A DNA stretch of 44,053 nucleotides from a virus. The stretch lies in the IMG/VR virus record IMGVR_UViG_3300046721_000236; one strand, given 5' to 3'. A model generated the notes under the pieces. The model searched no databases. It saw only the letters and a program-made list of their open reading frames with translations, and was not told the DNA's origin. Positions 4,297-44,053 of this stretch are shown piece after piece (position 1 is the first letter of the stretch; each line of letters begins with the position of its first letter). Position numbers and translations under genes: made by a program.

Positions 4297-4760
4297 CTGA
4301 TGAACGCACCCGACGACTCCGAGAGCTAGAAGCCATCGCGCAGGAAATCGAAGCGGCTTCGCTGTATCTCGACAAGCCTAACTATCCTATCAAGCCCCTA
4401 TGTTCAGACGACTTGAGGGAATGGGCGAAGCGTTTACGTGCGGCCGTGCTGGACACCGAGGGGGACCGACCAGCACCGACAATTGAAGAAGCGGACCTGT
4501 ATAAGCTCGCGGCAAAGGTCGCACATCAGCAGGAGACATGCCCATCAGCGCGAACGAGTGGCCCCTGCAAGTCCTGCGTCAATCGCGTGGACTTCGCCCG
4601 CTTATGTATCTTGCGGTTACGGTTACGGGCGGACACCGAGGGGGACGCCAGCCCAGCGCCCTCGATTTGCCCGAGCTATATCTGCCCGGTCTGCTATCAC
4701 GAAAAGGACCGCTGTTCGCATTGCGATACCGCGCTCCCTGATCCTCCGGTGCAGCCATGA
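4293..4760 (+). CDS. DTEG-repeat protein, paralog B (155 aa, two DTEG copies, Cys-rich C-terminus)
   Basis: Contains LDTEGDRPAP and ADTEGDASP, shares the N-terminal RTRRLRE block with paralog A, and has a CPxxxxxxCKSC ... CPSYICPVCYHEKDRCSHC cluster. Confidence 0.65.
   Translation: MTDERTRRLRELEAIAQEIEAASLYLDKPNYPIKPLCSDDLREWAKRLRAAVLDTEGDRPAPTIEEADLYKLAAKVAHQQETCPSARTSGPCKSCVNRVDFARLCILRLRLRADTEGDASPAPSICPSYICPVCYHEKDRCSHCDTALPDPPVQP
4442..4470 (+). repeat. DTEG element copy 4 (29 bp, identical to 2849..2877)
   Basis: ggccgtgctggacaccgagggggaccgac. Confidence 0.9.
4631..4646 (+). repeat. DTEG element copy 5 (16-bp core)
   Basis: ggacaccgagggggac. Confidence 0.8.
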
Positions 4761-15642: not shown

Positions 15643-15668
15643 GAGGAATCCGCGTGTAGTCTACACCC

Positions 15669-16577
15669 TCAGTGCGTTTCCGGCTGGGTTCGCGTGGGGC
15701 CAAGGAGCTGGTTACTATCGGCCGCCCATTCCGGCTTAAATCGCTGCACCAGCAAGATTGAGACGCTGGGCTCCCGCACGTTGCGGGCCTGCGCTGATTG
15801 GGGCACTGGTTTGGGGTTCGGCCAGTCCAGCGGCTTGACCGGCTTAAAGATGGGCAGCGAGAGCAGGCCCAGATCATTGAGCGTATGGCTCCCCTGCTGC
15901 GATTTGGCGCCCTGCGGGTTCGGCCAGTCGTGCTGATGCTTCGCTTGGCCTTGGGGAGCCGGCAGAAACACATTGAAATTATAGGGATCGGTGACGAATG
16001 CCGATTTCAAAATGGCGGGATTGACCCAATCTCGCTGTTTAAATGGGTCTTGCACCATGATCACGACGGGAAACACGATCGGATTCCGAATCGGCGGCGT
16101 ATCCACCGTCGGCAATTGCGGCGCCTTCGGCCAGTCATATTGAATGAAGGCAGGACTCGTCTGATCCTGCATGTAATAAAACAGGTGCGTATCCGGCTTT
16201 AAGGGAAGTCTGGCGGGCGTGGGCCAGTCACGCAATTTAACGGGATCACCGATCGACAGCGGTGGGGGTAATAACAAGAGATTGCGAGGCACATCGTCCC
16301 GCATCAAGGCGCCCGGTGCGGACGGCACGGGCCAATCGCGTTGCTTACGTGGATCGTCCTTGGGTCCGATCTCTGGCCGATAATGATGCAGCCCAGATGG
16401 CCGCTGGCCCAATTGGGCGGGGGTCGGCCATTGATGATGAAAGTAAAAGGGTTGCTGCGCGGGGCCGGATGGAAATAAGAGAAGGTTCCAAGTCGGCGGC
16501 AACTGTGCGCTATTGGCGGCTGTCGTCGATAAGGCCGCAATCGCCGTGATGAGCGGCGCGCGGAAGATCGTCGCCAT
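15669..16577 (-). CDS. Trp/Pro-repeat protein (seven DWPxP-type repeats), small paralog
   Basis: QWPTPAQL, RDWPVPSAP, RDWPTPARL, YDWPKAPQL, RDWVNPAIL, HDWPNPQGA, LDWPNPKPV. C-terminus RFKPEWAADSNQLLGPTRTQPETH matches the end of ORF 21223..22917. Confidence 0.65.
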   Translation of the reverse strand: MATIFRAPLITAIAALSTTAANSAQLPPTWNLLLFPSGPAQQPFYFHHQWPTPAQLGQRPSGLHHYRPEIGPKDDPRKQRDWPVPSAPGALMRDDVPRNLLLLPPPLSIGDPVKLRDWPTPARLPLKPDTHLFYYMQDQTSPAFIQYDWPKAPQLPTVDTPPIRNPIVFPVVIMVQDPFKQRDWVNPAILKSAFVTDPYNFNVFLPAPQGQAKHQHDWPNPQGAKSQQGSHTLNDLGLLSLPIFKPVKPLDWPNPKPVPQSAQARNVREPSVSILLVQRFKPEWAADSNQLLGPTRTQPETH

Positions 16578-21199: not shown

Positions 21200-21222
21200 G
21201 AAAGCGCGTGTAGTGTAACACC

Positions 21223-22917
21223 TTAGTGCGTCTCCGGCTGTGACTTCGACGGCCCGAGGAGCTGATTGCTGTTCGCCGCCCATTCGGGCTTGAAATGCAC
21301 AATGGCGCTGTCATTCCGGCGCGGCTTCACGGATTGCGCCGACCAGTTCGGTTGCCATTGCAGCATGATGGTGCTGAGATTCGCGCCACGCAGCGGCATG
21401 GCCGGCGCCGGGGCCGTGCCCGTCGGCAGCGTGGCGATCATCGTCGGCGCGTGTTGCGCCGGCCAGGCCTGCGCCCACTGGCTGACGAGGACGATCGTTT
21501 CCGTGACCGACAGGAATGATGATGGCGCCGGCGGCGTCCCTGGCGACGGCTGAATCACGGCAATCGGCCGCCGCTGCGCGGCCCACGCTGTCGGCCATGA
21601 ACCGACTATCTCCGAGATATCGGAGGCGCTGAGCGGGCCAATACTCGGCGGGGCGCCTTGGCCCTGCACCACGACCACGGGGCGGGCCTGCGCAGGCCAC
21701 GCCGTCGGCCATGCGTTGACCAGCTCCGATAGTTCGGCGGCGGTGGCTGGTCCTTGTGGCCCCGGTGAATTACCCGTCGAGGGCTGGACAACCACGATCG
21801 GCCGTGACTGCGCGGCCCATGACGTCGGCCACGTCCCAATAGTGAGGAACAGATTGATCTCGCCCATCGGCCCAATAGGCGTAGGTTGATTGACCGGCGG
21901 CGGCACGAACCATGCCGCGAGTTTAGGCGGACTCTGAGCCGGCCAATCCGTGAGCCATGACCGTTGAATGGCAAGATCGGTGACGCTGAGCGGGCCTTGG
22001 ATTGGCGGCGGATCGCCCGTCAACGGCTGCACGAGGGTCGTTAAACGCTGTGGCTGACTCCAGCCGATCGGCCACGCCTGCACAATCGCGCGATCAGTCG
22101 ATGTCAGTGGCCCGATGCTCGGCGCTGATGCAGTCGTTTGCACAACAGCGATGGGGCGCGATTGCGCCGACCATGTCTGTGGCCATGTCAGCCAGATCTG
22201 GGCAAGTTCAGATGCCGATAGCGGGCCTTGCGGAGACGGTTGATCCCCACTGGACGGCTGCACGAGTGAGATGAGTGCTTGCGGCTGCGCCCATCCGAGC
22301 GGCCATGAGCCCACCAGTGATTGCCGCACGGGAGGCGGCAGATCGCCCGTGCGGAACGTCGCAATGAGCGTGGGCGCATGCTGGGCGGGCCAATCCTGCG
22401 TCCAAGCTCGCTGGATCGCGATCTCCGTTGGCGTGGTCGGGCCAACGACCGGAGGCTGATCTGGATTATCTGGCGCAATCGTCCACGTCGTAACAACTTC
22501 AATATCGATCGCGTCATACCACGCCGACAGGAGGCTGCCCGGCAATCGAACAGCCGGCAAGAACGTCGATGCACCAGTCGGCGGGGGAATGACGGCGGCA
22601 TTTATGGGTGGCTTCTGCGCCGGCCACGTATCAGGTGCCCAATTTGTCGTTGCAAGTCGATAGGTCTGGCGCGGCGGCGGTTGCTGCCCATAGACGAGGG
22701 TCAGCGGCGCGATCTTGTTCTGCTGATTGTTCGGCGCTTGCAGGCGTGGTTCTAAGGATGTCGGCCATGCCGCCAACACGGCCACCATTGCCAATGTGGC
22801 CTGCACTTGACGCAGCGGGGGCTGATCGCCCGTTGAGGGCTGCGGCTCATGCGGAATCGGCGGCGCATAACTGGCCGATCCTTGTGAAGGCGGAGTCGGC
22901 GGATAGAAAAAGGCCAT
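21223..22917 (-). CDS. Trp/Pro-repeat protein (564 aa, about 10 repeats of about 40 aa), large paralog
   Basis: WxxxW(P/A/S)AQ motif at residues 172, 205, 245, 282, 321, 363, 403, 441, 481 and 521. C-terminus HFKPEWAANSNQLLGPSKSQPETH. Confidence 0.7.
   Translation of the reverse strand: MAFFYPPTPPSQGSASYAPPIPHEPQPSTGDQPPLRQVQATLAMVAVLAAWPTSLEPRLQAPNNQQNKIAPLTLVYGQQPPPRQTYRLATTNWAPDTWPAQKPPINAAVIPPPTGASTFLPAVRLPGSLLSAWYDAIDIEVVTTWTIAPDNPDQPPVVGPTTPTEIAIQRAWTQDWPAQHAPTLIATFRTGDLPPPVRQSLVGSWPLGWAQPQALISLVQPSSGDQPSPQGPLSASELAQIWLTWPQTWSAQSRPIAVVQTTASAPSIGPLTSTDRAIVQAWPIGWSQPQRLTTLVQPLTGDPPPIQGPLSVTDLAIQRSWLTDWPAQSPPKLAAWFVPPPVNQPTPIGPMGEINLFLTIGTWPTSWAAQSRPIVVVQPSTGNSPGPQGPATAAELSELVNAWPTAWPAQARPVVVVQGQGAPPSIGPLSASDISEIVGSWPTAWAAQRRPIAVIQPSPGTPPAPSSFLSVTETIVLVSQWAQAWPAQHAPTMIATLPTGTAPAPAMPLRGANLSTIMLQWQPNWSAQSVKPRRNDSAIVHFKPEWAANSNQLLGPSKSQPETH
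21328..22440 (-). repeat. In-frame tandem repeats of about 120 nt (about 40 aa) inside the Trp/Pro-repeat gene
   Basis: Unit consensus W-P-x-x-W-x-A-Q-x-R-P-I-x-V-V-Q-P-S-x-G-x-x-P-x-P-Q-G-P-L-S-x-x-E-L. Boundaries are approximate. Confidence 0.7.
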
Positions 22918-33069: not shown

Positions 33070-34244
33070 TGCCCACTTCCGTTCGGCTGCGCCTGCTGCT
33101 GGGCGGCTATGGTAGCACCAACCGCCGGGGGCAGCAGGCCATACTTCTTCAGGATGTCGATCGTCTTCGCATCGAACACAACGAAATTACGCGACACATT
33201 CCCGGCGGCCTCGGCGGCCTTTTCGGCAGCAGCTTGTGTCGGGTATGGTGTCATCGAACCTTTAATAAACCAGTTGTCGCCTAGTTTGTTCACGCCTGCC
33301 GTAATACGCGAGCCCTGATCGAGATATTTGATGCCGGGGATGCCTGCTTCTTTCAGTTCCAGCGATGCCACGTTTGGCCCTGCTATGCCTTCATCCTGTT
33401 TGAGCCGGTCAGCAATATGGTGATATGCCTCAGCGCCGGTCATAGTGTCGCGGGGAGGCGGTTTCCAAAATCCTCCGCTACTCATATACCGCTCTTGCGC
33501 GTTTGGTAGGAGCAGAGCTTTAACTTTTTCCTGCACGTCAGGATGCTGTTGACTCAGCGGCTTATCCCAATCGAGGAACTGATCCGGGTGCGCGTTGATC
33601 CCCACTTCATACATCTTTGGCGTATTGACCTGAATCAGCGAGGGATCAACGCTTTGCATTGTCTTGATTCTTGATTGCCACAACGCCGCTTGATCTGGCG
33701 CATACGTTTTATTGAAATCAACGGCTTTTTGCGCTTCGGCCATCCATGCGTCTTTACCCATCGCTTTCATATCCGCTAGATCGCGATGCATGGATGTGCC
33801 AGAGGGATATTCAATATTCTGATATCTCACCGGCGCAGCATCGCGGGCTGATCCTGTAAAGGCCTTCTTATACTCCTCAGCCACCTGTGGATTTTCCGCG
33901 AAATACAACCCGTGCCCGTAGGCTTGCGCGCCTTCCCCCGTCCCGATCTTGCTCGTATCGAATGCCTCGAAATCATGCGGGCTTCCGTGATACGCCTTGA
34001 TCGCCGCTGCAAATCGTGGGAACCGCTGCGCCACCGCATCAATCAGCCCGCCGCCCATCGGCCCGACATCCATCGCCGCGCCGACGCCCATCACCTGTTG
34101 CGGATCATCCAGCCCGAGCCAGCTCACCATCTTCCGTAAAATGCCCTGCCCAGGCGCATCGAACACCGACGCGCCATGCGGGTTGATACTCGCGGGCAGC
34201 TCCGGCTTCTGGATGACGAGCGGATTAGGCACCGCCGCCCCCAT
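33066..34244 (-). CDS. ART-PolyVal-like ADP-ribosyltransferase-domain protein encoded next to the portal gene
   Basis: AIKAYHGSPHDFEAFDTSKIGTGEGAQAYGHGLYFAENPQVAEEY (H and Y elements) and the distal LKEAGIPGIKYLDQGSR...NFVVFDAKTIDILKKY. Start set at ATG 34244. The track extension to 34328 is Arg-rich and lies inside the portal gene. Confidence 0.55.
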   Translation of the reverse strand: MGAAVPNPLVIQKPELPASINPHGASVFDAPGQGILRKMVSWLGLDDPQQVMGVGAAMDVGPMGGGLIDAVAQRFPRFAAAIKAYHGSPHDFEAFDTSKIGTGEGAQAYGHGLYFAENPQVAEEYKKAFTGSARDAAPVRYQNIEYPSGTSMHRDLADMKAMGKDAWMAEAQKAVDFNKTYAPDQAALWQSRIKTMQSVDPSLIQVNTPKMYEVGINAHPDQFLDWDKPLSQQHPDVQEKVKALLLPNAQERYMSSGGFWKPPPRDTMTGAEAYHHIADRLKQDEGIAGPNVASLELKEAGIPGIKYLDQGSRITAGVNKLGDNWFIKGSMTPYPTQAAAEKAAEAAGNVSRNFVVFDAKTIDILKKYGLLPPAVGATIAAQQQAQPNGSGQ

Positions 34245-36552
34245 TCGGTTGCTGCTTCGCTTGTTCCGCCGCCTGTTGCGCCATCTCCGCTTGATGCGCC
34301 TGATCGCTTTCCTGCGCCTGCTGGTCAATCACGGCGCCCTGCGATCCCTGCTCCAAGGCTTGCTGATGCGCCTGCGCCGCGAGATCCTTTTCATGCTGCT
34401 GCTTCATGCCTTGCATGCCGACCTCGTGCGCGTGCTGCAAACCCGTCGCGAGCCGTTCTTCCGCTGCCTCCGCCACTGGATCCAGCTGCGACTTGCTGGC
34501 CGAGATACGCGCGACGGCGATCGAAGTCGCGTTCTTCATCATTTGCAGCGCCAATTCCCGATCCGCATCCGTGTCAGCTTTATGCTTCGCAATCTGTAAA
34601 TCGGTCTGCGCCTTGATCTGCGTCTCCTGCAAACTGCCCTGCTGCTCGGCCTGCTTCGTCTGAATGAACTGCTGCGCCTTCTGCAACTCAGCCTGCATCT
34701 GCTGCATCTGCGCCTGCACAGCCGGCGGAATCTGCGGCTGATCGTTTTTGTCCTGCAACTGCGGCGGCAGCGCGTTCCGCAGCTTCTCCGCAATCTTGTG
34801 ACTACCCGGAAACGACAACTGCTCCACGTAATCCGGCGTGGCCACGGCGGCCATCTCTGGCGGCAGATGCGGAATCAGTTCGCCCAGCGCCTGCGCGCCC
34901 TCTTCCCGCTTCGTCGCCGTCGCCTTCCCGACCGAGACGGTCACGGCATAGCGCCCGTTGTTCAAGTCGTAAAACTTGTGCAGGCTGCCCTCGAGCTGCG
35001 CGATTTCCGGCGTGATGTTCGGCGGCGAGGGTTGCGGCTGCCCGTTCGGCCCCTCCTGGTAGGGCTGACCGACCATGACCTGTTCAGGCTCATCGTCCAT
35101 CCCCAGAATGTGAATAATCTGCCCCTTCGTCGTAATCTTCGGGATGATCTCGACCGCCAATTCCCCCGCGTAAATCAGCGCCCGCTTCACATTGTCTGGG
35201 TAATTACTGTTGGCGAGGTCTGATTGCGCCTGCAAGGCTTGCAACGCCCGCCCGCTCCGCTCGTTCGGGTTTGTATTCCCCAGTGACGCATCGCCCGTCG
35301 ACGTCGTCGCCTTAATCGCATCCTCGCTGACCCGCATCAATTCCACGGCGGCCTGGATCGGCGGCTCCGTCGTATCCAGCATCGGCGTCGGATACTCTTT
35401 CCCTTCCTGGTCCCACGGGTCAAACGGCAGATACGCGTGATTGATGATATTGCGCGTCTGCCAAATCTGCTTATAGTTTGCCACGCTCGCCGCCGCAATC
35501 ATCGGCGCGTTCTTCGGCGCCAGCGCGAAAATCTCCACGGCGCCGCTATACGTGTAGTTCACCATCCGCTGCGCGTCCATGCCCTCTTCAATCACGCCGC
35601 GCAGCCAGATCTTCCCGTCCACGTTCAACTCTTCGCCCAGAATCGGAATCAGCGGAATCCGCGAGCCGACCCAATCGAACGACTGCAACGATTGCACGGC
35701 GTTGATGATGTCGCACTTCACGCTGGGCACTTGCATGACGCGTTCAGCTTTGATGTCTTTCTTGTCATCAGGCTTTTCTTCAGTGACGGTCCCGTCTTGC
35801 AGTTGATACAGATGGCGCTTCGTGTAGACGATGCGGTAATACTCGGCAATCCTGATGCTCTCTTCACTCACCCATGAGGACCACTTCGACATATCGCCCG
35901 TGGACATGAAGGCCTCAAGCCCGCGCAGGTCCGCATCCGGCCACTTCCGTTCGTGCTCGTCCTTCGAGATATCATTCGTGACGAACGCCCAGCCCATATC
36001 GGAATATGTCGGCAGAACTGCCGAGGGATCACGATACACGCTCAGATTGTTCGTAATGCGCTCCATTCGCAGCGCCTGCCACATGGCCTCTTCGGTCAGC
36101 TCCCCGTCCCACGTCTCGTTGATGTAATCCGTGCGCAGCCGGAACCAGCCGATCCCGCCCTCAATCGCTTGGTCGGCCGCCCATTCAATCGGGGATTCCC
36201 CACGGCTGTTGTTCATCATCCAGCGCAGATAGCCCTTAAAGATATCGGCCGTATCCTGGTCGCTTGTGCCACCCGCCGGCAGCACGTCGAACCCAAAGCT
36301 GGCATTCTTGATGGTGTTGCTCACTTGCCGCACCGGCTGCGACAACCGATCGACCACGAGGCACGGCCGCGGTGGCTGCGGCGCCATCCCCTGCAGGCTG
36401 TTCCCGCCTTCGCGCGCCAGCTTAATCGCCGCCGGCCACTGGTCGCCCACCCGAAACTGTTTCGCGCGCACGATGCGATTGCGCTGCTGCTCTTCGGCTT
36501 CCGCCGCTCGGTTCCAGCGTTCGCGCGCTTCGCGAATCAGATCCTTCGCCAC
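34225..36552 (-). CDS. Portal protein (P22 gp1-like) with a Gln/Ala-rich C-terminal barrel
   Basis: GIGWFRLRTDY, IRIAEYYRIV, IPLIPILGEE and DAQRMVNY parallel P22 portal GVGAWRLVTDY, IQIAEFYEV, IPIVPVFGEW and DGQRLRNM. Has a long Q/A-rich helical tail. Confidence 0.85.
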   Translation of the reverse strand: MAKDLIREARERWNRAAEAEEQQRNRIVRAKQFRVGDQWPAAIKLAREGGNSLQGMAPQPPRPCLVVDRLSQPVRQVSNTIKNASFGFDVLPAGGTSDQDTADIFKGYLRWMMNNSRGESPIEWAADQAIEGGIGWFRLRTDYINETWDGELTEEAMWQALRMERITNNLSVYRDPSAVLPTYSDMGWAFVTNDISKDEHERKWPDADLRGLEAFMSTGDMSKWSSWVSEESIRIAEYYRIVYTKRHLYQLQDGTVTEEKPDDKKDIKAERVMQVPSVKCDIINAVQSLQSFDWVGSRIPLIPILGEELNVDGKIWLRGVIEEGMDAQRMVNYTYSGAVEIFALAPKNAPMIAAASVANYKQIWQTRNIINHAYLPFDPWDQEGKEYPTPMLDTTEPPIQAAVELMRVSEDAIKATTSTGDASLGNTNPNERSGRALQALQAQSDLANSNYPDNVKRALIYAGELAVEIIPKITTKGQIIHILGMDDEPEQVMVGQPYQEGPNGQPQPSPPNITPEIAQLEGSLHKFYDLNNGRYAVTVSVGKATATKREEGAQALGELIPHLPPEMAAVATPDYVEQLSFPGSHKIAEKLRNALPPQLQDKNDQPQIPPAVQAQMQQMQAELQKAQQFIQTKQAEQQGSLQETQIKAQTDLQIAKHKADTDADRELALQMMKNATSIAVARISASKSQLDPVAEAAEERLATGLQHAHEVGMQGMKQQHEKDLAAQAHQQALEQGSQGAVIDQQAQESDQAHQAEMAQQAAEQAKQQPNGGGGA

Positions 36553-36847: not shown

Positions 36848-37014
36848 CGTTTCAACGCCTTCTCAAGCAGATCTGCGCATTGATCCAAGACCACCGCTAA
36901 CGCCTGATCGCCATCTGCCACGCGCTCCATCCCAGCGAGCCAGCGCAACTCCGCAAGTAATTGCTCGGCATGGGAGGCCGCTCCGCTGACTTTCATCGCC
37001 GGTCTTGACTTCAT
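36844..37014 (-). CDS. Micro-ORF, 56-aa helical protein
   Basis: MKSRPAMKVSGAASHAEQLLAELRWLAGMERVADGDQALAVVLDQCADLLEKALKR. ATGA overlap with ORF 37011..37403. Confidence 0.4.
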   Translation of the reverse strand: MKSRPAMKVSGAASHAEQLLAELRWLAGMERVADGDQALAVVLDQCADLLEKALKR

Positions 37015-37403
37015 CGTTTCATCCCCTTCAAGGCTTCGCGTTCCGCTTCAATCCCCGGCAGCGCCTGCCGCATCGTCTCTCGCCACTTCAGCGCATTCTT
37101 CGGGGCCAATAAGAGCTTGGCCTGCACGCGCGGCGGGCTCGCTAGTAACTCGAAATACGCAAAGATCGCATTGAGGGTGCCATCCTCTTCCCCAATCCGA
37201 TAGCCGCGCCAGATATCGCCCGCCACCTTGCGCCATTTCTCGCGCCCCTCGCACACAATCGTCAGCAACCGCGGCCGGTCCCGCTCAATCTGCCGGATGA
37301 ACTCCTGGATGTTGTCCGTCAACGCCCGCTCACGCGTCGTGCTGTAGCCGACAATGGGGAGGTCGGGCAGGTGGAACATTGGCACAGAGTCTACACCCTT
37401 CAT
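37011..37403 (-). CDS. Hypothetical protein (130 aa)
   Basis: ORF track. ATGA overlap with the TerL stop. Confidence 0.55.
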   Translation of the reverse strand: MKGVDSVPMFHLPDLPIVGYSTTRERALTDNIQEFIRQIERDRPRLLTIVCEGREKWRKVAGDIWRGYRIGEEDGTLNAIFAYFELLASPPRVQAKLLLAPKNALKWRETMRQALPGIEAEREALKGMKR

Positions 37404-38896
37404 CCCATCCAGCTTTGGCTAAACCCGCTAAACGACGGCTGCGGCACCGGCTCTTCTTTCTTCTTCCGCGCCACGGTCTGCGCAAACGTCAGCGCCAGCG
37501 CGTCCCCTTCATCCGGGCTCGGCACGTCTCGCGCCGCCATCTCTTTCTTCGACTCCAGCCATACCCGCTGCTTCAAATCCTCCCGCAACCCTGGCGCCGT
37601 CAGGTCGTTCTCGAGCCGCGGGGACGTGTCAATCGCCCCGTTGACCAGCCAGTCCTTCATCCGCCCCCACATCATGTCGCGCATATACCGGTATTTCTTG
37701 TCAGGACTGTCCGCGCCAAAGTTCACTTCGAGGAGGTTAGTGAAGCCCAATTCACGGAGTCGGGTCCCAACAGATCCTGCGATTCCTGCTGAGTCCAAGA
37801 ACAGCATAGATACGCGATGCCCTCCATAGCTGCCAGCCAGAACGTCACTGAGCCGGTTGGTGAGGACGGAAGGATCACGCGTGAGTTCACCGGCAATACG
37901 CACAGCAGGGATACTACGCGCGTCTCGACCACGTCTAAATCTGATGACGTTGCTATCCTTGCCTCCCCAGGCAAGGTCGCATCCAGCGACCAGCGGTTCA
38001 TCATCCAGCACCTCCACCTTCCGTTTCTGCGCCTCGCGCACGCGCACCGCATCAATAAACTGCGCATCCTCCGCATTCGGCGGCAAGCCTCGGACGCGTA
38101 CCCGGAACCGGTCGCTGTCCTCGCCCCAGTCTTCCAGCTGTTCCGCAATCAGCGCCTTGTTCGGAAACTGGCACGTCCGCGCATCAATCTGCCACGTCTT
38201 CCACCCGCGCCCTTTGCCCGCGAACACGATGTCGTGAAAGCTGCCCCTGCGTCTCGTCGGATTCCCAAACAGAAACTGCATCGGCTCCCCATCCGTCAAG
38301 CCGCCTTCTTGCACCTCGTGGATGATCTCCGGGACGTTGCTGTCTTCGTCGTTGATGTAAAAGCTCGTGCTCGCCGCATTGTGCTGGCCAGCGAAGCTCT
38401 CGCTGTTGTCCGGGTCGCACGTCTGCGGGCTGCACTTCCACTCTTCGCGATGGCCTTTGCGATACAGGATGGACGTGTTCAGCTCGAACCAGTCGCGCGT
38501 AATCGCCCGCTTGACCCATGTCGTAATCGAGGGCCACGTCTTATCCTGCAGCTGCGGCCCCGTGTTCGCCGTGATCACGCCCTTCGCATGGCGCCTCGTG
38601 CTCATGAGGAAGCTAACCAACATCCCCGTCAACGCGCCCTTCCCAATCCCGTGGCCGCTCGAGACAGCCGCGCGAATGGGCATCACGGGATGGACGCCAT
38701 CAAAGTCCCTCCGTTTAATCTCGCTCCCCAGCCACTCCAGAAACTCACATTGCCACGCGTCGGGCTCACGATAGTGCTGCAAGGGCCCTGGCTCGCCCCA
38801 GGGGAACGCGCCGCAGACCCAGGCAAGGGGATCCGCATAGAGGGACGCGCACCACTCCACGAGGTCGTCATCGTAGCTGCGTGATGGTGCGGGCAT
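37400..38896 (-). CDS. terL: Terminase large subunit
   Basis: Walker A-like SSGHGIGKGALTG, an ATPase core, and a C-terminal RNaseH-like nuclease (CDLAWGGKDSNV, FLDSAGIAGSV). 498 aa, upstream of the portal gene. Confidence 0.85.
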   Translation of the reverse strand: MPAPSRSYDDDLVEWCASLYADPLAWVCGAFPWGEPGPLQHYREPDAWQCEFLEWLGSEIKRRDFDGVHPVMPIRAAVSSGHGIGKGALTGMLVSFLMSTRRHAKGVITANTGPQLQDKTWPSITTWVKRAITRDWFELNTSILYRKGHREEWKCSPQTCDPDNSESFAGQHNAASTSFYINDEDSNVPEIIHEVQEGGLTDGEPMQFLFGNPTRRRGSFHDIVFAGKGRGWKTWQIDARTCQFPNKALIAEQLEDWGEDSDRFRVRVRGLPPNAEDAQFIDAVRVREAQKRKVEVLDDEPLVAGCDLAWGGKDSNVIRFRRGRDARSIPAVRIAGELTRDPSVLTNRLSDVLAGSYGGHRVSMLFLDSAGIAGSVGTRLRELGFTNLLEVNFGADSPDKKYRYMRDMMWGRMKDWLVNGAIDTSPRLENDLTAPGLREDLKQRVWLESKKEMAARDVPSPDEGDALALTFAQTVARKKKEEPVPQPSFSGFSQSWMG

Positions 38897-39030
38897 TATC
38901 GTCTCGGCCCCAACACCTTGGCGCGGAACCGTTCATACACCCATGGATAGCAGGCATCGAGGAGAATGACCACGCAGAAGATCGCCCCGCCCGTGAGCAC
39001 GCCCAGCAGAAACGTCTCATAGATGCTCAT
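38896..39030 (-). CDS. Micro-ORF, 44-aa single-TM peptide between the terminase subunit genes
   Basis: MSIYETFLLGVLTGGAIFCVVILLDACYPWVYERFRAKVLGPRR. ATGA overlap with the upstream gene and TAATG overlap with terL. Confidence 0.4.
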   Translation of the reverse strand: MSIYETFLLGVLTGGAIFCVVILLDACYPWVYERFRAKVLGPRR

Positions 39031-39449
39031 GGCTTCAGCTTCAGCAACGATCGCTCCTTCGCGCGATCGAGGGCCGTCGTATTATCCGCCCGAATCTCAA
39101 TCTCCTGCACTTGTTCCTTCGGCCGGTCAATCGCTCTATTCAGCAAATCCGTGAAGGCTTGCACGCTCGGGTCTTTCTCCCAGACCTCGATGACCTCGGC
39201 GTCCTGGTCGACGTCCTCGAGCGAGCGCACGCGTTCGAATTTACCCGTCTGCTTATCGCGATAGACCAGATATTGCAGGCCCTTCGCATTGGCCACCTGG
39301 GCATCGACGAGCGCCGGCAGATGCGCCGTGATGGTTTTGCGCACGTATTCGCGGGCCGCTTCCTTGGCCAGCGTTTTGAGGAGCTTGGTGCCTTTCTTGC
39401 GACCGGCACCTGGACGTTTACCGCCGTGATTGTTCTTCAAGTTAGTCAA
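39027..39449 (-). CDS. Putative terminase small subunit / DNA-binding protein
   Basis: Immediately upstream of terL. Basic N-terminus NHGGKRPGAGRKKGTK, typical of small phage DNA-binding or TerS proteins. The apparent start codon is TTG, so the start is uncertain. Confidence 0.45.
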   Translation of the reverse strand: MTNLKNNHGGKRPGAGRKKGTKLLKTLAKEAAREYVRKTITAHLPALVDAQVANAKGLQYLVYRDKQTGKFERVRSLEDVDQDAEVIEVWEKDPSVQAFTDLLNRAIDRPKEQVQEIEIRADNTTALDRAKERSLLKLKP

Positions 39450-39481
39450 ATCTTTGACGGTAGGAACTATACCCCCCTCAT

Positions 39482-39694
39482 GGGAATTCGGGAACGGAAA
39501 GAGGCGATGAAGGGGAGCTTATGCTTTCTATATATATTATTAGTTCCGGCGTTCCCATGTATATATGGGAACGGGGAACGGAATTGTTTCCTGAATGAAT
39601 TCGCACGAAACAGGCAGAGGCGAAAAAGCCGTTCCCAGAGGTCGGGAACGGAAACGGAACTTGGGAACGGCGGGAACGCGGGAACGCGGGAACG
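39482..39694. repeat. GGGAACG iteron array with AT-rich blocks (candidate origin or control region)
   Basis: Direct GGGAACG at 39490, 39567, 39574, 39644, 39663, 39672, 39680 and 39688. Inverted CGTTCCC at 39550 and 39630. Degenerate copies at 39482 and 39650-39660. AT-rich ctatatatattattag at 39529-39544. Confidence 0.85.
39550..39573. promoter_or_regulatory. 24-bp palindromic operator-like site CGTTCCCAT-gtatat-ATGGGAACG
   Basis: Perfect 9-bp arms around an AT-rich 6-bp centre. A second inverted pair, CGTTCCC-agaggtc-GGGAACG, lies at 39630-39650. Confidence 0.7.
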
Positions 39695-39698
39695 GCTT

Positions 39699-40652
39699 TC
39701 ATGAGCGCGTGACGAGGCTGTAACTATAGGGGTCGTGCCGCTTCCCGGAGCCATGACGGACGACGGCGCCTTCGGCCATAAGTCGAGCAATCGCATGGAG
39801 TTTGGTCTGCTTGCGTCCTTCGACCAGTTCGAGCCATTCGATATGGGTGAGGAGGGGGGTCGGGCTATTGGCGAGGGCGTCGAGGAGCTTCTGGCCAAAG
39901 AGTTTCTGTTCCGCGAGCATGCGACTCCCGCCGAGGGACACACGGCCGGTCGTGGAGAGGTTGAGGACGCATTCATCGAGGTCTGGGCCGACGCGTTGGG
40001 TCGTGGAGACGGTGCGAAAGCCGCCGCGCTTGGCGAGGACGATGGTGTTGTCCACGGAGCCCGCAATGGCCGTGGAGCCGAGGACGCTATCGAGGGCTTC
40101 ACGGTCAGCGGCTTTACCGGCGTGATGGAGGAGCAAGAGGGCGGCGCCCGTTTCCCTAGCAATGGCGATGAGCGGGTTAAAGGCCAAGGTCACTTGGGCG
40201 TAGTCTTCCATGGATTTGACGCGAATGAGGCGCTGGAGCGTGTCGACGATGATGAGGGCGGGCCGCTCGAGTTTGGCGCGGGCGAGCAGTTCTTTCATAA
40301 AGGCTGGCGTGGGGGCGGTGAAATAGCACTGGAGGCGGGCAGCATCGGCGGGCTCCAGGTCGAATTGCCGGAAGTGGGCGAGATGGTCTTCTTTGCGGCC
40401 TTCGAAGGCGAGATACCAAACGAGGCCAAAGGCGCATTGCGAGCCGAGCCACATGGATTCTGTGGCGACGGCGACGGCGAGGTGACGGGCCGCCGTGGTT
40501 TTGCCGACTTTAGGTTTCGCGACGAGGAGATTGACACTGCCGGCGGGGATGCGATCGGAGACGACCCAGTCGACGATTTCTGGGGGTTCGTTGAGGAGCG
40601 TATCGAGGCCGGTTAAGGCCGCCAGCGGAAACGGAACAACAGCCATGCGCAC
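39699..40652 (-). CDS. RecA-fold ATPase of the RepA/DnaB-like (AAA_25) type with a C-terminal winged-helix-like domain
   Basis: Walker A LVAKPKVGKTTAA, Walker B PALIIVDTLQ, LLLLHHAGKA, and the C-terminal ...EWLELVEGRKQTKLHAIARLMAEGAVVRHGSGKR. AAGGAG lies upstream. Confidence 0.7.
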   Translation of the reverse strand: MRMAVVPFPLAALTGLDTLLNEPPEIVDWVVSDRIPAGSVNLLVAKPKVGKTTAARHLAVAVATESMWLGSQCAFGLVWYLAFEGRKEDHLAHFRQFDLEPADAARLQCYFTAPTPAFMKELLARAKLERPALIIVDTLQRLIRVKSMEDYAQVTLAFNPLIAIARETGAALLLLHHAGKAADREALDSVLGSTAIAGSVDNTIVLAKRGGFRTVSTTQRVGPDLDECVLNLSTTGRVSLGGSRMLAEQKLFGQKLLDALANSPTPLLTHIEWLELVEGRKQTKLHAIARLMAEGAVVRHGSGKRHDPYSYSLVTRS

Positions 40653-40670
40653 TCCTTACTGAGTGAAGGA

Positions 40671-40737
40671 AGCCGGGCCATCGCCTGAGTAAGCAAGCGA
40701 TGCGCGTCGAGCGAGGGGCGGCCGCCCCCGCCCGGCT
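40671..40737. other. GC-rich nested inverted repeats in the 99-nt gap upstream of the ATPase gene
   Basis: Outer arms AGCCGGGC (40671-40678) and GCCCGGCT (40730-40737) enclose CATCGC-12 nt-GCGATG and the 14-bp palindrome GGGGCGGCCGCCCC (40715-40728). Confidence 0.5.
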
Positions 40738-40751
40738 GGGTTCATTCTACG

Positions 40752-41174
40752 TTAGCCAACAGTTTTCTCATCTGTCTGATTGCTACCTAATTGCCCGCGT
40801 AACCACTCAATCGTGTCGACGCTGGCGAGCTGCTTCGGCGTGAATTGGAAGACTTTCCAGCCAGCGGCCTGCGCCAGATTCAGCTTTTCATAATCGCGCT
40901 GGAGGCCTTTGCGCGTGCTGTGGTCGCGGAAGCCTTGCTGCTCGACGGCGACTCTCAGGCACGGCCACGCGTAATCGAAGCGGAAATCACGATTCGGGAT
41001 GAGGAGCACTTCGCGGGCGGGGATGGGGAGCTTCGCTGCGGCGCAGAGCTCGAGGAAGCGATCGAAGGGCTGGGCATGAGGCCGCAAAGGCAACGGCAGC
41101 GGAGGCGCGAGGCCATCCATGCGGCGGCGAAAGGCGGCGTATTCTTCGACCGTCCAGCGCAGCCCGTTAGGCAC
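40752..41174 (-). CDS. PD-(D/E)xK superfamily endonuclease (Vsr/DUF559-like)
   Basis: FRFDYAWPCLRVAVEQQGFRDHSTRKGLQRDYEKLNLAQAAGWKVFQFTPKQL fits the D...E.xG..H....D..K.N.....GW.V.rF pattern. GTG start. Confidence 0.55.
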   Translation of the reverse strand: MPNGLRWTVEEYAAFRRRMDGLAPPLPLPLRPHAQPFDRFLELCAAAKLPIPAREVLLIPNRDFRFDYAWPCLRVAVEQQGFRDHSTRKGLQRDYEKLNLAQAAGWKVFQFTPKQLASVDTIEWLRGQLGSNQTDEKTVG

Positions 41175-41418
41175 GCGTCATCTGCGATTCCGTGTAGCGG
41201 CGAATTTCCTCACGCCGGTCGTTGATTTGCTGGCGCAGCGCCGCATTATGTCGCAGGAGTTCGCCATTCTGGGCCAGCAGGATCTGGCTCATCTCCCGAT
41301 AAATCACCAATTCCTGCTCGAGCTCCGCTACATCCGCGGCGAGGTGTTCCAGCACGGCTTGCACGACGTGTTCTTTCGACATGACGAACCAGTATGGTCC
41401 CCCTGTCAATGCCACCAC
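41167..41418 (-). CDS. Coiled-coil hypothetical protein, first gene of the minus-strand array
   Basis: ORF track. A more likely start is ATG 41382 (MSKEHVVQAVLEHLAADVAELEQEL...). Confidence 0.45.
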   Translation of the reverse strand: MVALTGGPYWFVMSKEHVVQAVLEHLAADVAELEQELVIYREMSQILLAQNGELLRHNAALRQQINDRREEIRRYTESQMTRA

Positions 41419-43319: not shown

Positions 43320-43478
43320 ATGCCGAAACCTGCCGAGACGCACGTCCTCTATTTACGCAAATTCCCTAAGGATTTGTCGCAACGCCTGAAGATCGAGGCG
43401 GCGATCCGTGGCTGCACAATTCCGCATGCCTTGGCGCTGATTCTTCGGGAATATTTCAAGCTTGCTAAAAGTGCTTGA
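43320..43478 (+). CDS. Ribbon-helix-helix (Arc/MetJ/CopG-type) transcriptional regulator (52 aa)
   Basis: MPKPAETHVLYLRKFPKDLSQRLKIEAAIRGCTIPHALALILREYFKLAKSA has a beta-strand/helix/helix layout typical of RHH proteins. It is flanked by TGCTAG/TTGCTA repeats. Confidence 0.6.
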   Translation: MPKPAETHVLYLRKFPKDLSQRLKIEAAIRGCTIPHALALILREYFKLAKSA

Positions 43479-43758: not shown

Positions 43759-43940
43759 GCCGCTGGAGTCAGGAACCCAACGCTGACGACGACAATGCGC
43801 TGAGCCCTGAGCGCGAAGAGCCCAACTGCGAAACCTGCGGCGAACCGGCCAACGAGGCTATCTGGGCTGGCAACGGGCAGTATGCGTTCTGCTCTGACAA
43901 GTGCCGCGATGACTACTTCAAAGCCCTGGAGGAGTTGTGA
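43755..43940 (+). CDS. FCS/TRASH-type zinc-finger protein (61 aa)
   Basis: CETCGEP...YAFCSDKCRDDYF. ATGA overlap upstream. The stop lies inside the terminal repeat. Confidence 0.5.
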   Translation: MSRWSQEPNADDDNALSPEREEPNCETCGEPANEAIWAGNGQYAFCSDKCRDDYFKALEEL

Positions 43941-44053
43941 TCCGCATCGGCCACCGCATGCCGTGGCTGGACATTGCCATCATCGTGGCCATGGGGCTGA
44001 TGCTCGGCGTGGCGATTGGCCTGTTCCTGATGGGCGGCTGGCGATGATGGCCG
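43927..44053. repeat. Terminal direct repeat copy B (identical to 1..127)
   Basis: Exact 127-bp identity with the window start. Confidence 0.95.

Follow-up and report, generated by a model that had tools for sequence, protein, structure and literature searches.

The stretch of DNA analysed in this work (the window, 44,053 nt, IMG/VR virus record IMGVR_UViG_3300046721_000236) is a circularly closed phage genome of 43,926 bp. Its bases 1-127 are repeated exactly at 43927-44053, a 127-nt overlap consistent with headful packaging of circularly permuted DNA or with a circular replicative form. We are concerned here with a 249-bp non-coding gap that is packed with copies of the 7-mer GGGAACG, a candidate replication origin, and with the ATPase gene whose stop codon borders it. 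The genes around the gap are arranged as follows.

40752-41174, minus strand: Vsr-like gene (140 aa), part of a long minus-strand block
39699-40646, minus strand: ATPase (rep) gene (315 aa), a presumed initiator-helicase
39450-39698: non-coding gap, 249 bp, between the ATPase stop and the start of the next open reading frame (ORF)
39027-39449, minus strand: basic protein (140 aa), small-terminase-like (TerS-like), directly before the large terminase; at the edge of an apparently exchangeable cassette, outside the putative origin
37400-38896, minus strand: large terminase, TerL (phrog_2)
34225-36552, minus strand: P22-like portal, after TerL

The 140-aa basic protein is taken to be the small terminase by its position only, since scans against Pfam, PHROGs and NCBIfam gave no useful family match. 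Within the gap, the following elements can be distinguished on the way from the ATPase stop codon to the TerS-like gene.

39644-39694, plus strand: proximal block of direct iterons, with exact GGGAACG at 39644, 39663, 39672, 39680 and 39688, and the degenerate copies GGAAACG at 39650 and GGAAC at 39656
39619-39651, minus strand: inverted iteron pair (copies 39630-39636 and 39644-39650), giving a 9-bp hairpin in the minus-strand transcript, followed by CUUUUUCG
between the inverted pair and the central core: spacer of about 48 bp
39543-39580: central core, with GTTCC at 39543-39547, CGTTCCC at 39550-39556, the 10-bp AT spacer ATGTATATAT at 39557-39566, and GGGAACG at 39567-39573 and 39574-39580 pointing the opposite way
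39516-39545: AT-rich block, 24 of 30 positions A or T (18 of 20 in 39525-39544), a candidate DNA-unwinding element next to the core
from the AT-rich block to the distal pair: about 20 bp of spacer with a conserved box, CCCCTTCATCGCCTC
39482-39496, plus strand: distal iteron pair, GGGAATT + C + GGGAACG, at a distance of about 35-50 bp from where the next gene starts
39466-39471, minus strand: -10-like hexamer TATAGT, 16 nt upstream of the TTG start at 39449, with no -35 consensus and the distal iteron about 18 bp upstream

The array thus listed extends over 39482-39694, inside the gap. The window has 15 copies of GGGAACG, where shuffled sequences would lead one to expect 7.9 +/- 2.6; the initial annotation of this DNA, which was made from the letters alone, had put the chance expectation at about five, and the shuffles give about eight. 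Its count of ten exact 7-mers in the gap, eight direct and two inverted, was correct: 10 of the 15 exact copies fall in 39490-39694, eight on the plus strand and two on the minus strand, and an eleventh copy, GGAAACG at 39650, carries one mismatch. The GGAAC core is found 13 times in 39450-39700 and at most three times in any other 250-bp window. The four tandem copies that had been described next to the ATPase stop codon are also there (39663, 39672, 39680 and 39688, spaced by 9, 8 and 8 bp). The last of them ends 4 nt from the stop codon at 39699-39701, and 39663-39694 is the strongest short-period tandem array as measured by Tandem Repeats Finder (period 8, 3.9 copies, score 55).

In the central core, at least two iterons point each way around the AT spacer, which reads ATATATACAT (10 bp) on the minus strand. 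The 24-bp site at 39550-39573 had been called a perfect palindrome. Its 9-bp arms, CGTTCCCAT and ATGGGAACG, are indeed perfect, but the 6-bp spacer GTATAT between them is not self-complementary, and the site read as two 12-nt arms is 92% complementary. The AT-rich stretches noted at the outset hold up on a genome-wide scale: the most AT-rich windows of 20, 30, 40 and 60 nt in the whole 44 kb all lie inside 39507-39566, and the block at 39516-39545, between the core and the distal pair, holds the AT-richest 20- and 30-nt windows. It had also been remarked that the 11-mer GGAAACGGAAC (39650-39660) recurs near the start of the ATPase gene. The recurrence is real (40627-40637, codons V-P-F-P of the ATPase), but it is of the kind produced by chance, with at least two such matches in 14 of 100 shuffles, and it is absent at that place in an 82%-identical relative.

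The proximal inverted pair was picked up by a terminator scan, with an RNA fold of -14.5 kcal/mol and a z-score of -2.2. Lying behind the rep gene, it looks like a terminator element and may be the intrinsic terminator of the rep transcript; the equivalent hairpin in the related locus L026, made of a variant repeat, folds at -13.5 kcal/mol (z -3.7). No DnaA box was found within two mismatches in 39450-39698, and Rfam gave no match at either gathering or permissive thresholds. A 74-aa ORF that covers the gap (39478-39702, with an ATGA overlap with the ATPase stop) was rejected as a candidate gene; it is probably not a gene because its translation is a low-complexity rendering of the repeats with no family match.

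The protein encoded next to the array was characterised by family scans and structure prediction. Its start is ATG 40646, with the Shine-Dalgarno (SD) sequence AAGGAG upstream, rather than GTG 40652, which gives 315 residues. A Walker A motif, AKPKVGKT, occupies residues 43-50; the Pfam AAA_25 match has an E-value of 4.4e-29 (101.9 bits against a cut-off of 27), and K44, P45, K46, G48, K49, T51 and D135 are invariant. The sole sequence match in the PDB is RepA of plasmid RSF1010 (1g8y). The AlphaFold2 (AF2) model has a mean predicted local distance difference test score (pLDDT) of 88 and a predicted template modelling score (pTM) of 0.83, and its best fold matches, 1olo, 1nlf and 1g8y (E 1e-13), share the RecA-like fold. 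The C-terminal domain, approximately residues 236-315 (window 39702-39941), is separate in the model, with a helix-strand-helix-helix-hairpin arrangement (H-b-H-H-b-b topology) and a pLDDT of about 90. Modelled alone (pLDDT 87), it matches only winged-helix DNA binders, namely SqrR/ArsR, MarR, HxlR, TubR and Stf76, with TM-scores of 0.6-0.69 and the weak E-values (about 1e-2) that are expected for 80 residues. The winged-helix-like C-terminus that had been suspected from the translation therefore agrees with the predicted fold. Taken from the models, the 315-aa protein is presumed to be an initiator-helicase in which a hexameric-helicase-like RecA-fold core of the RSF1010 RepA type is joined to a C-terminal winged helix. 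The Pfam scan gave no Rep_3 match, and no match to the ATPase was found among the PLSDB plasmids. A protein search of cultured phages returned matches to the core only, at 28% identity or less, in Microbacterium phages, and a DNA search of 37000-41200 against cultured phages returned none.

The most informative comparison came from sister phages in IMG/VR whose flanks are about 80-92% identical to the window in DNA. Every one of them has a repeat array of the same layout upstream of TerS, and the repeat word differs by group, as listed below with the loci (L numbers), the word and the protein in the rep slot.

Group A (the window and L009-L012): CGTTCCC; AAA_25 protein
Group B (L024-L027): CTGTTCCC(A); AAA_25 protein, 82% identical to that of group A
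Group C (L020, L021, L023, L030, L031): GGTGGATA; VapE-like protein
Group D (L028, L029): AGGTGGC; VapE-like protein
Group E (L013-L018, L022): GGGTAGA; VapE-like protein

The VapE-like protein in groups C, D and E has about 400 residues and is unrelated to the AAA_25 protein (Pfam PF05272, E 1e-58 to 1e-66). In two further loci whose ATPase homologues are 60-65% identical, L036 and L038, the array is made of CGGTTCCC and has the core, AT block and distal pair in common with the others. L040, where the homologue is 47% identical and the surroundings are unrelated, with no terminase gene close by, has five copies of CGGGAACCACA; these include a GGTTCCCG-CATATAG-CCGGGAACC site at the stop codon. 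In the alignment with relatives at 60-82% Rep identity, the columns of the core are invariant, and so is the distal pair, GTTCCC-N-GTTCCCA; an AT-rich segment is at the same place in all relatives, regardless of the repeat word. A tandem block homologous to the proximal block of the window is present in group B and in L050. Between the gap and its relatives of 95-98% identity there are six substitutions, none of them in a 7-mer, which is consistent with an origin, though not significant. Apart from the iterons, several arrays of the AAA_25 type share a conserved box, CTCCCCTTCAWCGCCTC, located between the AT-rich block and the distal pair (window 39497-39512, where it reads CCCCTTCATCGCCTC on the minus strand; L026, L027 and L036); it could be a host-factor or priming site.

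Which protein the word goes with can be judged from pairs of loci in which Rep and TerS have parted company; the TerS values below refer to the N-terminal 55 residues.

L026 and L027: Rep 100% identical; TerS N-terminus 46% identical; same word
L027 and L036: Rep 61% identical; TerS N-terminus 93% identical; different words
L028 and L036: Rep VapE-like against AAA_25; TerS N-terminus 84% identical; GGTGGC against CGGTTCCC

L038 has the word of L036 and yet no detectable homologue of the window-type TerS, and TerS homologues without an upstream rep gene (L032, L033) have no array. Where small ORFs intervene (L027, L031, L036), they lie between the array and TerS and in no case between the array and rep. 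A ribbon-helix-helix (RHH) protein encoded at 43329-43478 on the plus strand had been put forward beside the ATPase as a possible reader of the repeats. It is unlikely to be one, because its identity across groups A, B, D and E is 98-100% and the words of these groups are quite different; as judged from this comparison it cannot set the repeat word, and it probably regulates something other than the array. By the same kind of evidence, the repeat word follows the Rep protein and is independent of both TerS and the RHH protein.

Two side observations on this region may be added. The small ORFs just mentioned are Cys-rich and zinc-ribbon-like (CxxC...CxxC), and lie between the array and TerS in L027 (3822-3990), L031 (3771-3986) and L036 (about 4458-4600); the window has none. 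When TerS itself (window 39027-39449) is set against its counterparts in L014-L031, identity over the first 55 residues is 46-96%, and residues 56 to the end are 99-100% identical as protein across most groups (78-82% in the most divergent, L036 and L031), with DNA identity of only about 84-87%. This pattern indicates, at the sequence level, that the C-terminal part is under strong purifying selection and that the N-terminal part, perhaps DNA-binding, is variable.

The limits of the exchange are sharp, and the flanks of the sister phages concerned are about 85% identical to those of the window. Between the window and the VapE-type sister L014, DNA homology stops at 40650 and resumes at 39448, so the exchanged unit appears to be exactly the rep ORF plus the array (39449-40650), in what would be a non-orthologous swap of a complete replication cassette. 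The same replacement by a VapE-like helicase with its own iterons is seen in L014, L018, L028 and L031; this helicase resembles the Rep of Staphylococcus aureus pathogenicity islands (SaPIs) and belongs to superfamily 3 (SF3). In these sisters the leader of about 100 nt (40650-40751) and the TerS gene are still homologous to those of the window. Across rep cassettes the DNA of this leader, located between the rep slot and the Vsr-like gene, is conserved (window 40653-40751, minus strand; L026 2690-2800; L038 2900-2975; L014 2163-2645) and holds a promoter-like match from 40771 to 40744; it may be a shared early promoter or regulatory leader of the replication slot.

The link between ATPase and array can be followed far beyond these phages. 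A metagenome scan collected 80 loci with ATPase homologues at 36-64% identity, and in the 69 that had enough flanking DNA the GGAAC/GTTCC cores were counted in four places.

450 nt after the winged helix: 5.0 cores per 450 nt; at least four cores in 48 of 69 loci
ATPase gene body: 1.0 core per 450 nt; at least four in 0 of 69
next 450 nt: 1.0 core per 450 nt; at least four in 1 of 52
upstream 450 nt: 0.74 cores per 450 nt; at least four in 0 of 60

The counts after the winged helix differ from those in the gene bodies with a Wilcoxon p of 2e-11. Of the 69 loci, 39 have a convergent GTTCC-N(4-20)-GGAAC site, the centre of which is usually TATATA-like; none of the 69 gene bodies has one. Because of this distribution, the CGTTCCCAT-GTATAT-ATGGGAACG site of the window is, by comparison, the signature site of the whole ATPase family.

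Many of the homologues have their GGAAC iterons within the called ORF, in a long C-terminal tail, where they are translated as recurring SGSxVP or REPE peptides (L054 893-1260, L055 1703-1950, L065 2398-2770, L039 3780-3850 and other loci). Two explanations offer themselves: an origin embedded in the coding sequence of its own initiator, or gene callers that read through a non-coding origin. The 74-aa ORF over the gap of the window is the same phenomenon.

The closest parallel to this arrangement is found in the SaPIs. The VapE-like proteins that occupy the rep slot in the sister phages (L014, L028, L031) match PDB entry 7PDS, the SaPI1 Rep1-DNA complex, with an E-value of 2.6e-41. SaPI Reps are self-loading helicases that also act as initiators via a C-terminal winged helix, and this winged helix reads penta- or hexanucleotide iterons (PMC9371898). 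The SaPI origin consists of 6-12 iterons immediately downstream of rep with an AT-rich region near the centre and at least two iterons per side, in opposite directions (PMC9371898). On sequence comparison, the arrays of the window and of all sister groups fit this description point by point. As in the SaPI Rep/ori system (7PDS, 7OLA), one protein is predicted to be both helicase and initiator, with a C-terminal winged helix; 10 exact and three degenerate iterons occupy 249 bp, the first of them 4 nt past the rep stop; the AT-rich region has at least two iterons on each side, opposed to one another (39543/39550 against 39567/39574); the iteron word seems, by comparison, to be specific to the cognate Rep; and there is neither a DnaA box nor a separate loader. 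The two systems differ in the core of the protein, which is a RecA-fold AAA_25 core resembling RSF1010 RepA in the window and an SF3/AAA+ VapE-like core in SaPI Rep. They also differ in the genome that carries them, a complete phage of 43.9 kb as opposed to a satellite. The window has, in addition, a tandem block of 4-7 iterons and a terminator-like hairpin, and its central AT spacer is only 10 bp long, with the main AT block to one side. By analogy, the window would work like a SaPI origin without being a homologous member of the SaPI Rep family.

Considering the co-variation of word and Rep, the exchange of cassettes, the array that follows the ATPase family into unrelated contexts and the predicted folds, we consider it likely that the 249-bp gap is a phage replication origin of the self-loading helicase type and that the adjacent helicase reads it through its winged-helix tail. 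The initial annotation had proposed an iteron origin with an unwinding element read by the ATPase C-terminus, and the comparative evidence supports this proposal well. We infer binding, ring assembly, melting and use of the gap as a replication start in the following manner. The winged helix of the 315-aa protein, whose RecA-fold ATPase core resembles that of a hexameric helicase, would read the short GGGAAC(G) iterons, and protomers sitting on the two convergent iteron pairs would assemble two rings flanking the ATGTATATAT spacer (39557-39566). These rings would open the spacer and the adjacent AT-rich block (39516-39545), with the central core as the site where melting starts, and host primase and polymerase would then take over, prime and elongate. 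The proximal tandem block (39644-39694) and the distal pair (39482-39496) may be extra binding sites that could recruit or titrate the protein.

Other known replicons share parts of this design. RSF1010 (IncQ) RepA is the closest solved structure and the only PDB sequence match of the ATPase core, and RSF1010 is itself a replicon with iterons next to an AT-rich region. Recognition of its three 20-bp iterons falls to RepC, a separate protein that afterwards allows RepA to load, whereas the helicase of the window carries a predicted DNA-binding domain of its own and its iterons are 7-mers at a spacing of 7-9 bp. The alpha protein of satellite phage P4 is a helicase with a C-terminal winged-helix origin-binding domain that goes with short repeated octamers (type I iterons). 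It differs from the window ATPase in combining a primase with an SF3 helicase, and P4 ori and crr lie apart from the gene end; the likeness is one of description, with no sequence relationship seen. Classical iteron plasmids (Rep_3/RepA/RepE/pi) and the lambda origin, read by lambda O, also have repeated initiator sites beside an AT-rich unwinding element. The lambda origin lies within the reading frame of its own initiator O, as do the iterons of many homologues of the window ATPase. Unlike the window, these systems use iterons of 17-22 bp on helical phasing (about 22 bp in the plasmid origins), the plasmid and lambda initiators are not helicases and need a separately loaded DnaB, and the plasmid origins usually have DnaA boxes, of which the gap has none within two mismatches. 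A classical Rep_3-type plasmid iteron origin was ruled out by the 7-9 bp spacing together with the absence of a Rep_3 match and of a DnaA box.

Several points weigh against a replication origin of this type. No recognisable primase or polymerase was found among the window proteins scanned, and dependence on the host has to be assumed. As for that host, a scan of a genome collection gave a sole match, to a small contig in a metagenome-assembled genome of the Gammaproteobacteria. About 30% of the distant homologues have no clear GGAAC array (e.g., L041), and the iterons of the window, at 7-9 bp apart, are much shorter and denser than those of classical plasmids. The cumulative GC-skew minimum at 39297, about 200 bp from the array, was tried as origin evidence and set aside: it carries little weight because the contrast between structural and early modules, seen in all relatives including those with other rep genes, mostly explains it. 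The rep gene has a skew opposite to that of the co-oriented terminase and portal genes (39001-40500). Finally, the packaging genes follow immediately downstream of the array, and this is a frequent location of cos and pac sites.

This last point leads to the possibility that the array is a terminase recognition site (pac/cos), bound by the small terminase and with the AT-rich core as the cut site. The array immediately precedes a TerS-like gene, TerL and a P22-like portal, which is a common place for such sites, examples being the lambda cosB R sites and SPP1 pacL, and both the circular closure by the 127-nt overlap, as expected for a headful phage, and the variable N-terminus of TerS among relatives would agree with it. 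We hold this to be highly improbable, given that the same word is found with TerS N-termini of only 46% identity and different words with N-termini of 84-93% identity, and that the array stays at the rep stop codon where extra ORFs part it from TerS. In addition, GGAAC arrays follow ATPase homologues with no terminase nearby (L040; 48 of 69 loci), L038 keeps the word of L036 with no detectable window-type TerS, and TerS homologues elsewhere lack arrays. Even less probable, and close to negligible in our estimate, is a plasmid-style partition or incompatibility site, in which a protein of the RHH or ParB type would bind the heptads as a centromere-like array. Short heptads, some direct and some inverted, do resemble centromeres of the omega/ParR type, and the phage does encode an RHH protein at 43329-43478; against this stand the absence of a ParA- or ParB-like gene among the proteins scanned, the near-identity (98-100%) of the RHH protein where arrays use unrelated words, and the fact that the word tracks the helicase.

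A purely transcriptional role, in which the array would be the operator of a regulator that ends early transcription and turns on the packaging operon, and would have no part in replication, is very unlikely in our judgement, even though the gap does contain signals of this kind. The terminator-like hairpin with its U-run is built from two of the repeats and is conserved in group B, -10-like hexamers precede TerS in the window and in relatives, and the TTG start of the TerS-like gene has no SD sequence. The minus-strand TATAGT at 39466-39471 had been proposed earlier as a good -10 with an iteron at the -35 position; the hexamer is there, with the distal iteron at about the -35 place, but a consensus promoter scan does not call the site. 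What speaks against transcription control alone is that the co-varying protein has the predicted fold of a replicative helicase and not of a transcription factor, that sister phages replace it by a homologue of an experimentally proven initiator-helicase, and that arrays occur inside or after homologues in contexts without a comparable downstream operon. The hairpin, moreover, is absent in L036 and L038, and the RHH regulator is identical across different repeat words. Beside its role as an origin, the gap may have a secondary role in transcription, such as the late-gene switch suggested in the initial annotation. As a side observation, the TTG start of TerS, which lacks an SD sequence, is preceded at a distance of only 2-16 nt by a -10-like hexamer in the window (TATAGT, 39447-39475) and in L026, L027, L028, L031, L036 and L038 (CATAGT, CACAAT or TATGAT, at 2-6 nt in relatives), which suggests that the TerS-like late transcript may be leaderless or have a very short leader.

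The replication and transcription signals could also be combined. In one joint reading, which we regard as rather unlikely as a whole, the origin would double as a hinge between early and late expression, and the ATPase would stand for a large undescribed family of RecA-fold self-loading helicase-initiators that share one GGAAC iteron code and often carry their origin within the coding sequence of the C-terminal tail. By binding the proximal inverted pair and the distal pair, Rep would then control both the iteron-built terminator behind rep and the -10-only promoter before the TTG-initiated small-terminase gene; origin firing, or titration of Rep by the replicated copies, would turn on the packaging operon.

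Returning to the self-loading helicase origin, it should be said which parts of it are already known. Iteron origins beside rep genes are, and the layout is that of the SaPI and P4-type self-loading helicases. What appears to be new is the predicted fusion of a RecA-fold RepA-like helicase core to a winged helix, the GGAAC/TATATA site that seems conserved across a large uncharacterised metagenomic family, and the apparently clean exchange of the cassette with an SF3-type Rep in otherwise similar phages. In the literature searched we found no description of an origin for this ATPase family and nothing on an AAA_25 or RepA-like helicase with iterons, and the cultured phage and plasmid records held no close homologue. 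For a phage group without cultured members, the analysis names an origin and an initiator in terms concrete enough to be tested, and would extend the design of a self-loading helicase plus a 3'-adjacent iteron origin beyond SF3/AAA+ proteins (SaPI Rep, P4 alpha) to a RecA-fold helicase resembling RSF1010 RepA. Near-identical backbones that seem to have swapped an SF4-like for an SF3-like cassette, each with its own word, would form a natural specificity-swap series, which could be used to work out how winged helices read iterons of 5-8 bp. The GTTCC-TATATA-GGAAC site may also serve as a simple origin annotation beside the hundreds of unannotated "AAA family ATPase" genes in metagenomes.

Some features elsewhere in the window deserve a brief mention. 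The only other DNA-metabolism gene recognised among the scanned proteins is a single ORF of 472 aa on the plus strand (723-2141), a fused recombination module in which a 5'-3' exonuclease (PF02739/PF01367) is joined to a RecT-like annealing domain (phrog_561). In the early region on the plus strand there are three copies of a 36-nt repeat, at 2849, 3068 and 4442. A direct repeat of 95 nt with 75% identity, at 15646-15740 and 21200-21294, is located at the starts or upstream regions of two minus-strand structural genes 5.5 kb apart.

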